Below, piece after piece: positions 8,893 to 59,942 of a DNA stretch of 64,000 bases. A program made the translations under genes and the position numbers. Source of the DNA: Eledone cirrhosa. Taxonomy: Eukaryota. The notes under the pieces were generated by a model, which was not told the DNA's origin, did not search any database, and saw nothing but the letters and a program-made list of their open reading frames with translations. Each line of letters opens with the position of its first letter. Within the stretch, counting starts at the first letter, position 1. The stretch covers positions 96,162,001-96,226,000 of the forward strand of contig OZ024744.1 in the NCBI GenBank assembly GCA_964016885.1, read 5' to 3'.

Positions 8893-9430
8893 GTCGCGTC
8901 GTCGGCGACTAAACCGGCAACCCCACCAAGTTTACTTGGTGAGGAGGGTGATTTTGGATACCCTGCAGGACAAAAAACAAAACCTGACAAAGGGCGGAAG
9001 AACTCATAAGAGTCAACGGTCATCCAAAAATGTGTAAATATGTATATACACATGTACATATGTATGTATATGCGCGGGGACATAGAAATAGTCGGGCCGG
9101 ACACCCGATCGCGCGGTTAAACCACTGGGAGTGAAGGACCCCTAGCCTTTGTCAGGGCATTCTTCTAGGAGAGGCAACTCAGGAAACTGGGATAATTCCG
9201 ATATAAAACCTGCGGCTCAGTAGTTATCGATGATCTTGATCTTATTTTTTTCGGATTATGGCTACTGTCGCTCAGAGAGTGGGATTGGCTCAGTGCATAG
9301 TCTTTCCTCACGTTAAAAAATATCTTCACGCACAGGCATTGCACGATAGAATTAATTAATAATTATTAATAATGGTATATCGTGCAATGGCCATACTCGA
9401 TAACGAGAGGGCAACCATCATCATCATGTA
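8893..9430 (+). mobile_element. Related non-autonomous RTE-derived element (family B)
   Basis: Colinear with family A, with an extra GC-rich segment at 9073-9120. Ends ATGGCCATACTCGATAACGAGAGGGCAACCATC..ATGTATG. Confidence 0.7.
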
Positions 9431-9431
9431 T

Positions 9432-9898
9432 GTTTATCCCTTTCTCTTAATTTCGTGTATATTTTTGACCGGCCACCTTCCTGGTGGCAAGGTTGTAAAA
9501 GAAAAGAAATTTTCATCCCTTGAATCGCAAGAATGTTTTGCAAATTTTGAAGGTGCCAGCTATCGCAGCCATTTGTAGATTATGAATTAGGGAGCTGCGC
9601 TTTTTGTCCGCAAATCCAAGTTCAGTTATACATTGGTCCAAGCGGGTTGGTATATAACCCGTAGCTCCAATAATGATGGGTATGAAGCTAAAGGTGTATC
9701 TTGGATATTTCTCTGACAACGTTGACATCAAGTGGGCAGCTGATCTCCACAACAGAACACGTTTTCAATGTGTGGTCCCAAACTACACTATCAGGCCGGT
9801 TGTGCTTTAATTTGGTGGCAGTTTTTAATTTCAGATACCACCAGTATTCTTTAGTGCCATCTGTCTCAGTATATTCTTCCTCGTTTGTTGTTAATTTT
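9432..9898 (-). mobile_element. 5'-truncated RLE LINE 3' end ((CATA)n-associated family 2)
   Basis: KHNRPDSVVWD endonuclease motif and IPIIIGATG...GTFKICKTF stop; ATGT repeats at both ends. Confidence 0.8.
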
Positions 9899-10194
9899 GT
9901 ATGTATGTATGTATGTATGTATGTATGTATGTATGTATGTATGTATGTATGTATGTATGTATGTATGTATGTATGTATGAGGGAGCTTATAGATAGGACA
10001 ACACATGCTGTCTTTTCGTGGGGTAAGTTTTTAATTAATTTTTGTATTCTGAAACATCAAAATACAACAAATTGTTGGTCACTGGACTCGGGAATGTCAC
10101 GACAGAAGTTTGTGGAAGTTACACAAATATTTTAGTATATTTTAGCAGAGCAATCCTTATTTATATTTTACATTTTACATTTACTTACATCTCA

Positions 10195-10370
10195 ATATAA
10201 CATGGCTAAAATTCAAATTTTGCAAAGAGAAGAAAACGGTCAAATGAACTAGATACATCTCACTGTCCCCACCACCACAATAACGTCTACACTCTCTCCC
10301 CACCATCACATGTCATTACCCTATCTAGATTAAAGTCATCGACCTGTTGTCAAACTCACTACTCTCTGTT
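10195..10370. repeat. Unclassified dispersed repeat
   Basis: Similar to 20230-20398; both lie downstream of an (ATGT)n tract. Confidence 0.5.
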
Positions 10371-10710
10371 GAATGTGTATATATATATATATATGTATGT
10401 ATATGTGTGTATATACATCACTCAGTCAAACGACCAGATTTCAACCCGAACATCTACAACAACAACACCGGCACTAATGTTTACAGCAACAACAGCTTCA
10501 GAATGAACTGAAATGAACATTTACAACAACAACAACAGCGGCATCAAAAGATAAAAAAAAAAGAAAAAGAAGGGAAAAAACAAAACAAAAAAACTCAAAA
10601 TGACAAAACACACACACGCACACAACACAACAACAACATCAACTGCCACCACCACCACCACCACCGCCGCCATCACCATCACCAGCGACTGGGCCTTAAG
10701 AAAACAACTT

Positions 10711-10870
10711 TAATAATAATTTTTCTGCTTTTGGCACGGATCCAGCGACTGGTCCAGCGCATCACTGGTACTCTCGTTTGTTGACTCCGTGGGGACGAAA
10801 GGCAAGGTTGACCTCGGCGGGCTTTGAGCTCAGAGCGTGGAGGGCCGTGACTCTATGCTGTAAAGCAATT
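10711..10870 (-). mobile_element. tRNA-derived SINE, diverged
   Basis: Matches the SINE core (GGCAAGGTTGACCTCGGCGGG..TGAGCTCAG). Confidence 0.75.
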
Positions 10871-11136
10871 ATAGTAATACTGGACTGTAATACGATCGGC
10901 TTCAACTATACAAACTCTTGAAAGTCAACAGTTGACATAATCTGGTAATCTTGTATCAGTAATGACGGTAATATATATATATATATATGGGTGTGTGTGC
11001 GTGTAAGTGAGTAGAGTAGCGTGTGTGTGTGTTTGTTTGTATGTATGAGTGTTGCTGTGTGCGCGCATATGTATGCGCGTGTGTGTATGTCGTACGTATA
11101 AGTGTCAATAAGTGATTTTTTTTTTTTTTTTTTTGG

Positions 11137-11405
11137 CGCGGGGACATAGACATAATCGGGCTGGATGCCCGATCGCGCAGTTAAACCACTGGGAGTGAAG
11201 AACCCCTAGCCCTTGTCAGGGCATTCTTCTAGGAGAAGGCATCTCAGGAAACTGGGTTAACTCCGACATAAAACGGCTCAGTAGTTACCGATGATGTTGA
11301 TCTTTTCTTCTTTTCGGGTTATAGCTACTGTCGCTCAGAGAGTGGGATTGGCTCAGTGCACAGTCTTTCCTCACTTTGAAAATATTCGTCACGCACAGGC
11401 ATTCC
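11137..11405 (+). mobile_element. RTE-derived family B fragment
   Basis: Matches 9073-9345. Confidence 0.7.
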
Positions 11406-11439
11406 ATGAATGCATTAATAATTATTAATAGTGTACTAT

Positions 11440-57600: not shown

Positions 57601-57720
57601 GAGAGAGGAGACTGTGGCTCACATTGTATTCGAGTGTAAACACCTATCCCAGACTCACTATAAAGCCTGGAGACATGATCTGATGGGCAGGGTGATCCAC
57701 TGGCACCTATGCAAAGTAAA
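54630..57720 (+). mobile_element. Dong/R4-like LINE, near full length; 3' end displaced to 59226-59340
   Basis: N-terminal RTNWTKELN..VMECY..GYRKRM..W; RT ORF 55773-57377 (YRPIT, QGDSLSP, FMDD); CRIC..H....C; same family as 11440-12566. Confidence 0.93.
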
Positions 57721-58276
57721 CAATGAAGGTTGGAAGATCACTGATGAAGGACTAATTTTATTCATATGTAACCCATGTGCAAACACGCATCACTCCATTT
57801 TTCTTATATTTATATTTTTTCCTCAGCTGCGACCTGTCTGTTTCTTTCTTACTGCTTTCCCTCTCTCTGTATCTCTCACCTTCTTTTCACCCCTCTGCCA
57901 GTCTCACTCTCTCTCAGCTGGCCTCTTCCTCACACTTCCACTCACTCACTCTCTGCTTCTCCCCCTCTCTCACATCCTCCCGTTTGACCTGTGTGAAATC
58001 CTTTATTCGCTCACATCTCACACAGGTCGGATGGTCTGTATCTCTCGTCCATGATTTCACCAAGCTTAAGCTTATAGATATCATGTACTTGTCTCTTCCT
58101 ATCTTTCCGTTGCAATACCATCTTTGTTTGTTTACATGTCTCGCTCACTTCACCCTATTTTACTTGTCCCAATAACTTTATTTAGTTATTGCTCGCACCA
58201 ACCAGAGGTATATGATTTTTAAAGCGATGAAATACCAATGAAGGTTGGAAGATCACTGATGAAGGACTAATTTTAT
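57721..58276. mobile_element. Non-coding insertion with ~41-bp terminal direct repeat (family of 1-860)
   Basis: CAATGAAGGTTGGAAGATCACTGATGAAGGACTAATTTTAT at 57721 and 58236. Confidence 0.65.
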
Positions 58277-58576
58277 ATACACACACACACACACACACAC
58301 ACACACACACACACACACACACACACACACACACACACACATATATATATATATATATATATATATATATATATATATATATATATATATATAATTGAAT
58401 AAAGAAGAAAGATGAACACTAATATAAATATACATGTGTTCGAATCGTAAGGACCAAATTTGCTAGGGTGAAAAAATACTAACTACAGCAATATAGTTTG
58501 TTATCCTTAATTTTAAATATTAAATTAAGAAAAATTAAGAAAAATAACATACCTATATTGGGCAAAAATGCCTGGT

Positions 58577-58658
58577 AACAACTAGACAGTGTTGGAGACT
58601 GTTTCGCAACGACTTATTAAGTGAAGTTCTCACGTTTCTCTGTTCATCAGTAGTTGTT
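58577..58658 (-). ncRNA. Type I hammerhead ribozyme (inverted copy)
   Basis: AACAACUA-CUGAUGA..GAA ACAGU CUCCAAC ACUGU C-UAGUUGUU; first helix II pair is A-C. Confidence 0.7.
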
Positions 58659-58831
58659 GAGAAATTAGTGATCCTTTCACTTCTAAAAATATTACAGAAT
58701 GAATTGTGTACTATATGAATTATCGCACGTGTCATTCGTAACCCAGCTTGTCTCGAAATTCCCTGCCGATAAAAATAGCAGCCTGGCTGACAGGACATTA
58801 TTTTTAGAAGTGAAATGATCACTAATTTCTC

Positions 58832-58913
58832 AACAATTACTGATGAACAGAGAAACGTGAGAACTTCACTTAATAAGCCGTTGTGAAACAGTCTCCAACA
58901 CTGTCTAGTTGTT
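58832..58913 (+). ncRNA. Type I hammerhead ribozyme, extended loop II
   Basis: AACAAUUA-CUGAUGA-ACAG[30 nt]UUGU-GAA ACAGU CUCCAAC ACUGU C-UAGUUGUU. Confidence 0.8.
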
Positions 58914-59225
58914 ACCAGGCATTTTTGCCCAATATAGGTCTGTTATTTTTCTTAATTTTTCTTAATTTAATATTTAAAGTTAAGGATAACAAACTATATT
59001 GCTGTAGTTAGTATTTTTTCACCCTAGAAAATTTGGTCCTTACTATTCGAACATATGTATGTTTATATTAGTGTTCATCTCTCTTGTTTATTCAATTATA
59101 TTGTACGGCTCGGAAAAACTTTTTTCTTAGAGCTATTTAATTGTAAGGGACTACCCTGAGTTCTTAACTCAATATATATATATATATATATATATATATA
59201 TATATATATATATATATATATATAA

Positions 59226-59340
59226 CCCTCCGATACGTCCTGAATGTCTGAGGCTGCAGGTAGTGGCTTGATATTCATTTCAACAAACTTTCCAGTTAAA
59301 TAACATCAATGACTGAGACTCAAAGAACAATAATAATAAT
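59226..59340 (+). mobile_element. 3' terminus of the Dong/R4-like LINE
   Basis: Reverse complement of ~11460-11567 (LRYVLNV stop + UTR); ends in (AAT)n. Confidence 0.85.
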
Positions 59341-59942
59341 AATTGTTTCTACTTTTGGCACAAGGCCAGGAATTATCCCAGTGTATTACTGGTACTTTAT
59401 TTTATAGATCCCGTAAGGATGAAAGGCAAAATTAACCTCGGCGGGATTTGAACTCAGACCATAAAGGGCCGTAACTCTTTGCTACAAAGCATGGCGTCCG
59501 ACCCTCTACCGATACTGCCAATCCACCACCCAATAATAATAATAACAATAATCGTTTCTACTATTGGCACAAGGCCAGCAATTATCAGTACATTACTGGT
59601 ACTTTATTTTATCGACCCCGAAAGGATGAAAGGCAAAGTTAACCTCGGCGGGATTTAAACTCAGAATGGCAACTCTATGCGTCAAAGTATGGCGTCCGAC
59701 CCTCTACCGATACTGCTACTCCACAATGATAGTTTCATTTATTGGCCACAAGGGCCGACATATAGGGGACAATACAAAAGACAGGGACAGTGGGGGTTTA
59801 CATATGCAACATGTAAACAATATAAATAACAATAACAAAATACAAAATAACAAAATTTGAATTCAGACTGTAAATGGCCGTAACTCTATGCTGCAGAGCA
59901 TGGTGTCTGACTCTCTACCAATACTGCCCATCTACTGCCCTT
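59341..59942 (-). mobile_element. SINE cluster (59341-59530, 59550-59725, 59860-59942) with a Tx1-like 3' stub (59732-59790)
   Basis: SINE core matches; TTTATTGGCCACAAGGG matches the Tx1 end at 52036-52052. Confidence 0.8.

Follow-up and report, generated by a model that had tools for sequence, protein, structure and literature searches.

Four pairs of retrotransposons lie tail to tail in a 64,000-nucleotide stretch of the Eledone cirrhosa genome (3.0 Gb), positions 96,162,001–96,226,000 of OZ024744.1, which was analysed whole and is called the window here. In each pair, one partner is a long interspersed nuclear element (LINE) of the RTE type or a short interspersed nuclear element (SINE), the other is a LINE with a predicted restriction-like endonuclease (RLE), and a run of (ATGT)n or (AAT)n type lies between the two 3′ ends. 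We consider these junctions a likely by-product of two unrelated integration machineries that use opposite strands of the same pre-existing microsatellite tracts. A preliminary description of the window had proposed that one class seeds the microsatellites for the other. That proposal is not supported: a short RTE-type element, B, never had ATGT on its 3′ side only, the target-site duplication (TSD) of the SINE begins directly behind the element end, and a SINE-free paralogue of one insertion site already has the tract. Both classes are most likely users of the tract.

Element families were defined by self-comparison of the window, Pfam matches and the reading of open reading frames (ORFs), and repeat arrays by Tandem Repeats Finder (TRF). 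Every set of genomic loci comprised the best-scoring 30 of 40 scored copies, from 536–1,877 candidates. The genome-wide figures come from one genome.

The junctions and the RLE LINEs

Read directly, the sequence has all four tail-to-tail junctions at the positions claimed for them. At junction 1 (9418–9432) a plus-strand element ends in ...GGGCAACCAT, followed by catcatcat and gtatgt, about two ATGT units, after which the sequence continues as the reverse complement of the 3′ end of a family E RLE LINE (9432–9897). Junction 2 (19172–19182) has a plus-strand 3′ end of the same type, ...GGGCAGCCATCAT, then gtatgtgtg and the reverse complement of the 3′ end of family A (19182–19509). At junction 3 (28104–28193) the end of element D (...GCTGCAATCCTCATAC) shares a perfect plus-strand (ATGT)22 array (28105–28192; TRF) with the reverse complement of another family A 3′ end (28193–29606), and at junction 4 (59328–59344) the 3′ end of a Dong-like LINE is joined through (AAT)5 (59329–59343, plus strand, read directly) to the reverse complement of a SINE 3′ end (...GTAGAAACA). 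The preliminary description had seen a single CATA-family LINE at all three ATGT junctions; this is right for 19182 and 28193, where the partner is A, and wrong for 9432, where it is E. Its (ATGT)n tract is real at 28105, with 22 units, whereas the runs at 9430 and 19180 have only about two. The strand rule that it gave stands: RTE-type elements, the SINE and a zf-RVT LINE at 49174 carry the T-rich strand at their 3′ end, and A, E and the Dong-like LINEs carry the A-rich strand.

This rule could be followed genome-wide for family A. The exact 21-nucleotide (nt) 3′ end of A occurs 5,505 times, and ACATACAT comes directly after it in 4,117 of these. With up to 4 bases allowed between end and repeat, 2,232 of 2,725 forward-strand sites had the correct orientation; on the reverse strand the gapped pattern matches some sites repeatedly (3,886 matches, 2,780 sites), and the forward-strand figure alone was used. 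A repeat in the ATGT orientation (ATGTATGT) within 4 nt of an A end was found once in the genome, and one ACAT unit precedes it there. Junction orientation, which the preliminary description had proposed to count, is thus far from random at A ends (4,117 ACAT-type against 1 ATGT-type), and family A is strictly site- and strand-specific.

The repeat also lies in front of the RLE LINEs. Among A loci found with the last 228 bases of the window copy A2 as query, at least 8 bp of ACAT-type repeat stood directly behind the 3′ end in 27 of 30, and directly at the 5′ junction in 19 of the 24 copies that are truncated inside the locus; the remaining 6 of the 30 run off the locus. Truncation points vary from copy to copy. 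Genomic 3′ ends of family E have ACAT-type repeats behind them, as for A, and an AAT repeat stands at the 5′ junction in 19–20 of 27 truncated genomic copies of Dong-like family 2 (Dong-2), whose copies are very young (99–100% identical over the 3′ 100 bp). A repeat before a 5′ truncation point cannot be explained by a tail of the RLE element. With the repeat found in one orientation both behind the 3′ end and before the truncation points, the claim that the RLE LINEs are microsatellite-specific, on one strand, was borne out. RLE copies also stand head to tail in one tract, at 11447–15245 and at loci L003, L030 and L233. Exceptions to the strand rule were two Dong copies tail to tail and one Dong copy with (ATT)n, not (AAT)n, upstream (L186, L173), and also two places, L051 and one of 20 sampled tracts described below, where (ACAT)n passes straight into (ATGT)n. 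All these exceptions may be inverted duplications.

Family A is present in the window four times. A minus-strand fragment of the reverse transcriptase (RT) part (7236–8087; RVT_1, E = 4.7e-16) is 93.7% identical to 62804–63648 in inverse orientation; its 5′ truncation point adjoins the array at 8089 and its 3′ part is missing. The minus-strand 3′ fragment of junction 2 (19182–19509) is an old copy, with a median identity of 88% to 29 genomic copies. A2, the minus-strand partner at junction 3, is 1.4 kb long and 5′-truncated, with an array on each side, and A3 (60900–64000, plus strand; RT, CCHC and RLE) continues for 931 bases past the window, its 5′ limit not being defined. The E copy of junction 1 (minus strand) is a 3′ part, 5′-truncated at the array at 9898, with an NRPD...VVEIS RLE motif in its ORF.

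The genomic copies nearest to the last 276 bases of E (L228–L256) have another conserved sequence upstream, not E's RLE ORF; by sequence, they seem to be members of an abundant non-autonomous family with a 3′ end borrowed from E (97–98% identical).

Three Dong-like copies complete the set. On the minus strand, a 5′-truncated Dong-2 copy (11447–12585; self-comparison and ORF reading) has (ATT)5 at its 3′ end (11427–11441) and (TTA)3–4 at its 5′ junction, and next to it a copy of Dong-like family 1 (Dong-1; 12590–15245; RT and CCHC/RLE, RVT_1 E = 3.2e-30) adjoins (TTA)37 at 15246–15356 with its 5′ end. The partner at junction 4 is a full-length-type Dong-2 copy on the plus strand (54620–59328; RVT_1 E = 1.7e-25) with an internal replacement: about 1.5 kb (57725–59223) stands in place of about 400 bp of the RLE region and holds (AC)n(AT)n and an inverted repeat (58389–58691 against 58799–59101, 96%), and contigs of other Dong copies continue with Dong sequence at 57724.

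After the RT, A3, E, Dong-1 and Dong-2 all have a C-R-x-C...H...C knuckle and an N-R-P-D...D...P-x-D block. In the PDB, a C-terminal profile built from the four sequences matched nothing but R2 proteins at E values under 1e-3 (4.6e-7, 7.3e-7 and 6.4e-5), and these matches cover the C-terminal CCHC and RLE region of the R2 proteins; the C-terminus of A searched as a single sequence gave a weak match (E = 0.29). No match to an apurinic/apyrimidinic endonuclease (APE; Exo_endo_phos) was found at E ≤ 1 in the ORFs before the RT (61594–62816 in A3, 54742–55394 in the plus-strand Dong copy), a more distal domain being possible in A3, with its undefined 5′ limit. The label RLE LINE, given to the minus-strand elements in the preliminary description, stands because of these motifs, the R2-only profile matches and the absence of an APE match upstream of the RT. 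Judged from their sequences, A, E and the two Dong-like families belong to the RLE-bearing retrotransposons that lack long terminal repeats (non-LTR elements).

TRF found seven ATGT-type arrays in the window, all perfect and all with ATGT on the plus strand. Besides the array of junction 3, they include (GTAT)25 at 8089–8189, (ATGT)24 at 8798–8892 and again at 30061–30156, (TGTA)20.5 at the 5′ junction of E (9898–9979) and (TATG)22 at the 5′ junction of A2 (29607–29694). The long arrays have 20–25 units, and both arrays around A2 have exactly 22; such similar, perfect lengths may reflect a length equilibrium, homogenisation or assembler behaviour. Duplication of a whole tract by the RLE insertion was considered for these equal arrays and rejected: A2 has 22 units on each side, but the two sides are unequal across 24 genomic A copies. 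The sequence to the right of the array that ends at 9979 (9980–10700; GAGGGAGCTTATAGATAGGAC...) recurs beside ATGT tracts elsewhere (L155 and L158, 2 of the 20 sampled tracts), which makes it another repeat family with an end that adjoins such tracts.

RTE-type elements and the SINE

One RTE-like LINE has a non-autonomous derivative of 608 bp, element B (8190–8797, plus strand), which ends in ...TACTCGAAAACGAGTTGGCAGCCACC. If it made an (ATGT)n tail itself, the repeat would show as a tract on the 3′ side only. Genomic loci of B were found with its first 211 bases, a repeat-free query, and the 30 bp adjacent to the element were at least 80% (AT/GT)n at the 5′ side of 25 of 30 copies and at the 3′ side of 21 of 30, compared with 19% for 600 control 30-mers drawn from the same loci. 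At least three ATGT units stood beside B on the 5′ side at 16 of 30 loci and on the 3′ side at 11 of 30. ATGT on the 3′ side only was seen at 0 of 30, which indicates that B does not bring the repeat. The reverse type was absent from the same sites, with three ACAT units found beside B at 0 of 30 loci. (AT)n surrounds half of the B copies; there, CCACC is followed by (AT)n, not ATGT. Whether B lies in (AT)n or in (ATGT)n, the repeat type is the same on both sides. In imperfect targets (L033, L039 and L043) the TSD comes directly after CCACC. The idea that (ATGT)n is the RTE-type element's own tail therefore fails for B, which has AT- or ATGT-type repeat on both sides.

Further plus-strand copies of B in the window are a full-length one between (TGTA)5 and (TATG)10 (19537–20146; self-comparison and TRF), a 5′-truncated one (29695–30061; self-comparison) and another full-length one (30157–30757; sequence read), from which about two ATGT units lead to unique DNA. 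Tandem B copies within tracts thus occur at 29695–30757 and were seen at several genomic loci.

B has relatives in the window. C (15385–19172, plus strand; Pfam) is an RTE-like LINE with APE, RT and three C2H2 fingers, recognised in colinear ORF pieces at 15239–18813 with a broken frame (Exo_endo_phos(_2), E = 8e-5 to 1e-3; RVT_1, E = 2.6e-16). Its ORF ends at 18813, about 300 bp of microsatellites (18822–19130) come directly after, and a conserved terminal 46 nt follows; the candidates for the source of these 46 nt (19127–19172) are C itself and a split copy of the B-like family B2 at 11136–11430. The finger remnant and stop in the 3′ part of B match the C-terminus of C. D (27228–28104, plus strand), the partner at junction 3, is an internally deleted RTE-like LINE that retains the N-terminal part of the RT and C2H2 units; over the RT N-terminus D and C share 36% identity (E = 8e-26), the finger units of the two can be aligned, and only 20 nt separate the stop codon of D from the element end. 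In the 3′ region of D the C2H2 units are arranged in 106-bp tandem repeats (27813–28028), one finger unit per copy, and the number of these repeats differs greatly from one genomic copy of D to another, up to ten or more. Architecture makes it reasonable to take C, B, B2 and D as one LINE lineage and to keep the label RTE-type for it. Short repeats, not poly(A), make up or end the 3′ untranslated region (UTR) in this lineage, as do the microsatellites after the stop at 18813 in C.

B2, known here from sequence comparison, is the partner at junction 1 as a 5′-truncated plus-strand copy (8893–9418; 3′ end ...CAATGGCCATACTCGATAACGAGAGGGCAACCAT). The second plus-strand copy (11136–11430) stops at an internal AT-rich tract, where it meets the 3′ end of Dong-2 with 7 extra bases between. 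Its missing 3′ part was not found behind the Dong pair; that place is taken by (TTA)37, 24 T and the 5′ end of C (15246–15385). Behind the ends of B2 and D stand runs of AT, of ATGT or of both mixed, and their lengths differ greatly. The termini of C, B, B2, D and the SINE themselves are fixed: CCACC, GCCATCAT, CCTCAT and GTAGAAACA.

The SINE gave a similar picture. Copy 1 (59344–59531, minus strand), the partner at junction 4, lies in the ATT run behind copy 2 (59553–59735); a B-box-like GAGTTCAAATCCC is visible, and the SINE is similar at its 3′ end to the zf-RVT LINE at 49174. The latter, called Tx1-like in the preliminary description, is the 3′ part of an element (49174–50313, minus strand) that ends in ...CCTTGTGGTTAATAAAGAAATC and (ATT)n, with a second minus-strand copy at 52190–53244 (self-comparison); in these copies, which have (ATT)n at the 3′ end, a zf-RVT match (E = 4.2e-10) is the sole domain found. 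Three of the 30 genomic SINE loci repeat one duplicated insertion, leaving 27 independent copies. In 15 of the 27, an exact direct repeat of 9–19 bp, starting ATTA or ATTAT, comes right after GTAGAAAC(A), and a long ATT run follows in only 3 of the 27. By this sequence evidence the SINE carries no ATT run of its own, and its TSD begins right behind the terminal motif. B and the SINE are alike in being followed by a TSD that begins AT(GT)AT... or ATTAT....

One insertion can be compared with its own empty site. At 53898–54019 (minus strand) a 5′-truncated SINE (53912–54005) has the TSD TATAATATAATAAT on both sides, and the second copy of a local duplication holds the paralogous site TATAATATAAATAATAATA (54403–54423) with no SINE present. 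This SINE-free paralogue has an AAT-like tract, which indicates that the tract preceded the SINE.

SINE copies also lie (at 37674–38016) inside a 9.4-kb satellite (35732–45154) of 454 copies of a 21-bp unit, TTAGTAAGGGACTATTTAGTA. Beside the satellite are a 2.4-kb TG-rich array (33088–35529) and a perfect (CTT)114 (47959–48301). Elsewhere in the genome, the same SINE insertion with identical flanks occurs at least four times within 350 kb (L208, L209, L225 and L226; contig 8, 39.6–39.95 Mb), a sequence pattern that indicates a large segmental or tandem duplication.

Pairing, order of arrival and alternative explanations

How often the two classes meet was read from long ATGT tracts and from the locus sets. 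A pattern search that took the first matches along contig 1, with flanks not considered in the choice, yielded 20 tracts, made up of 22 perfect runs with 10 or more ATGT units each. Eight of the 20 begin right behind an RTE-type 3′ end on the left; on the right, eight end at a B-type 5′ end or truncation point and three at an RLE 3′ end. One of the 20 had both, an RTE-type end to its left and an RLE end to its right, against 1.2 expected if the two were independent (8 × 3 / 20). No extra attraction between the classes was found in these 20 tracts, a small and local sample: orientation is beyond chance (4,117 to 1), and the pairing of RTE-type with RLE ends is not.

Among the genomic loci, several partner calls being read by eye, 5 of 29 non-window copies of A and 5 of 29 of E stood tail to tail with an RTE-type end; conversely, an RLE end stood tail to tail with B at 1 of 29 loci, with B2 at 2 of 29 and with D at 2 of 28. 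Dong-2 adjoined a SINE tail in 9 of 29 copies, an ATT-ended zf-RVT LINE in 5 of 29 and, as read by eye, a SINE head (the 5′ TSD copy) in 6 of 29. A Dong copy was found beside 0 of 26 independent non-window SINE copies. The observation that RLE copies often adjoin RTE-type or SINE ends is therefore sound for A, E and the SINE tails next to Dong-2. The association is frequent because elements and tracts are abundant, and its orientation is forced. Nested clusters of transposable elements were also predicted, and nests do build up in these tracts.

The order of arrival, estimated from identity to top hits, was mixed. The RLE copy appears to be the younger partner at junction 9432 (E 97–98%, B2 93–95%), at junction 28193 (A2 median 95.6%, D 84–91%) and at junction 59343 (Dong-2 99–100%, SINE 96–97%). 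At 19182 it is the older one, the A fragment having a median of 88% and the adjoining B (19537) a median of 97%. Ordering by divergence, as the preliminary description had suggested, thus agrees with its expectation at three of four junctions and disagrees at 19182; RLE copies are not consistently the older partner, just as orientation is not random, and neither of these two findings that were to refute the description was made. Continued insertion of the two classes into shared tracts would be expected to produce both orders of arrival. A Dong-less allele was sought in reads and contigs of four public runs over 54300–59800, where coverage was swamped by repeat copies; the one long joint, from 54408 to 59333, has a 24-letter side in AAT repeat and counts neither for nor against such an allele.

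We propose the following mechanism for the use of one tract by two machineries. RLE proteins would recognise the duplex repeat, nick it strand-specifically and prime reverse transcription at the predicted nick. APE-type elements would choose sites whose nicked strand pairs with the last few bases of their RNA, a model already put forward for RTE-related retroposons (PMC6007223). One class would then need ATGT or ATT on its own strand and the other ACAT or AAT, and because of these opposite requirements two elements in one tract would have to lie antiparallel. A tail-to-tail junction would arise when the stretch of tract behind an RTE-type or SINE 3′ end is hit by an RLE element, and equally when the stretch behind an RLE 3′ end is hit by an RTE-type element or SINE; a series of such hits would turn the tract into a nest. 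Some lengthening of the tract by slippage may accompany each insertion, and occasional true seeding may occur through the internal microsatellites of C and B2.

Several points weigh against this explanation. Most D copies carry 2–4 GTAT units even beside unique DNA, which could be a short tail of D's own, and the 5′-flank test covers B, not D or B2. The C LINE and B2 hold internal AT-rich microsatellites, and Dong cuts one B2 copy at such a site (11430), possibly a case of true seeding. TSDs are invisible inside perfect arrays, so B or D may add repeat units by slippage on landing. As for the counts, the locus sets are biased towards copies that resemble the window's own, the 20 tracts all lie within 6.7 Mb of a single contig and had their flanks classed by eye, and identity to top hits is a crude proxy of age.

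The preliminary description's explanation, that the (ATGT)n or (ATT)n arrives as the 3′ tail of an RTE-type element or SINE and that RLE LINEs home to these tails, has the points on D, C and B2 in its favour. It would also fit the younger RLE copies at three of the four window junctions, the 8 of 20 long ATGT tracts that start right behind an RTE-type 3′ end, and the position of about half of the Dong-2 copies next to a SINE or another ATT-ended LINE. Published passages lend it further plausibility: RTE elements are reported to generate simple sequence repeats (SSRs) (cited passage of PMC2887409), and the 3′ UTR of the octopus element RTE-2_OV is described as mostly microsatellite (cited passage of PMC9115989). 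We nevertheless regard it as unlikely. B takes up (AT)n in (AT)n tracts and its TSD can follow CCACC directly, with 3′-only ATGT at none of the 30 loci; the SINE TSD begins right after the element end, long ATT runs are confined to those 3 of 27 copies, and the empty paralogue already has the tract. Dong was absent from all 26 independent SINE copies outside the window, and pairing of RTE-type and RLE ends stays at the independent expectation.

The converse, that the tracts are (ACAT)n or (AAT)n tails made by the RLE LINEs, in which RTE-type elements and SINEs then land, draws on the repeat behind the 3′ end of most A, E and Dong copies, on the B copy at 19537, younger than the A fragment that it adjoins, and on the insertion of B in arrays. 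It is still less probable than seeding by the RTE-type side, since the repeat also precedes variable 5′ truncation points in both A and Dong-2; an RLE end is missing beside 17 of the 20 long ATGT tracts, and (AT)n, the site of half of the B copies, is used by none of the RLE families here. That microsatellite recombination, replication slippage or assembly mis-joins secondarily united unrelated ends is hardly credible: the perfect window arrays of similar length (22 units on each side of A2, a hint of homogenisation or assembler behaviour), the missing 3′ part of the A fragment at 7236–8087 and the replacement in the plus-strand Dong copy would suit it, but thousands of independent loci show the same type of junction with the exact element terminus, insertion is what TSDs and variable 5′ truncations signify, and flank lengths are not generally equal.

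The use of pre-existing tracts by both classes might be extended further, although we put this forward as a tentative possibility: the two strands of the same microsatellites would be split between APE-type (RTE and SINE) and RLE-type elements, each APE-type insertion would double the seed through its TSD, each RLE insertion would cut one tract into two, and the tracts would multiply as self-propagating landing pads. If true, this would help to explain the growth of nests and the high load of perfect (ATGT)n, for which (ATGT)10 has 328,771 overlapping matches in the genome.

Meaning and relation to known systems

The junctions separate two ideas that look alike, a repeat carried by a mobile element and a repeat sought by it. 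In annotation, it would be wrong to treat (ATGT)n or (AAT)n beside these elements as their tails and mask it accordingly. To repeat biology the window offers a clean natural case of several active families with two types of endonuclease competing for one safe harbour, the choice of strand fixing the mutual orientation of the competing families. For marker work, it explains the shared flanks of tetranucleotide loci in such genomes.

In literature listings, abstracts and cited passages we found no paper on RLE LINEs and RTE-type elements or SINEs sharing tracts back to back, and no (ACAT)n-specific RLE family; Repbase and supplements lay outside this search, and the families may be catalogued there.

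Microsatellite targets are well known for non-LTR elements. Dong, of the R4 clade, is a (TAA)n-specific non-LTR retrotransposon of Bombyx, Anopheles and the snail Biomphalaria (PMC3812793, in a passage citing Xiong & Eickbush 1993 and Kojima & Fujiwara 2004), and Dong-R4 and RTE families are described as recently active in octopus, with Dong-R4 in Octopus vulgaris (cited passage of PMC13282606). The window families resemble Dong in having RT then RLE, in the AAT/TAA repeat that adjoins both the 3′ end and the 5′ truncation points, in forming head-to-tail tandems in one tract (11447–15245) and in their very young copies. They differ from Dong as described in that two distinct families are present here, the label Dong-like being taken from architecture and target. 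The frequent position of Dong-2 beside SINE tails and 5′ TSD copies of SINEs is not mentioned for Dong in the cited passages of PMC3812793.

Families A and E have partial counterparts. Waldo-A and Waldo-B, of the R1 clade, target ACAY repeats (cited passage of PMC3812793) and share with A and E a tetranucleotide target of ACAT type and strand-specific insertion. Waldo, however, is APE-type, whereas A and E carry an RLE after the RT, with no APE match in A3. Microsatellite specificity is known from RLE lineages too, namely from Togen, with (TG)n, and from some HERO families (cited passage of PMC4640811), and A and E are like them RLE LINEs that choose a microsatellite target; that passage names no RLE LINE with (ACAT)n as its target. 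Kibi and Koshi are further microsatellite-specific non-LTR elements named in the cited parts of PMC3812793 and PMC4640811.

On the RTE side, octopus RTE-2_OV has a 3,327-nt ORF with endonuclease, RT and a rare C2H2 finger, and a microsatellite from the end of the ORF (cited passage of PMC9115989). C matches it in APE, RT, C2H2 finger and the microsatellite at the ORF end, and short derivatives share the 3′ end of C. In RTE-related retroposons the first TSD bases follow a microsatellite-like 3′ end, for which guided cleavage, or base-pairing of the RNA end with the nicked target, has been modelled (cited passages of PMC6007223). The first TSD bases here likewise equal the terminal repeat unit. 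Unlike in those retroposons, whole (AT)n or (ATGT)n tracts are preferred, with the repeat on both sides, a stronger preference than the one or two bases given there for animals. In the lepidopteran RTE-SSR families the link was read as generation of SSRs, according to the cited passage of PMC2887409; here it points to insertion into existing SSRs. Set beside these systems, the strong whole-tract preference of an RTE derivative and the partition of strands between the two classes are a modest new twist, and the whole is an ordinary extension of known target preferences, not a new kind of system.

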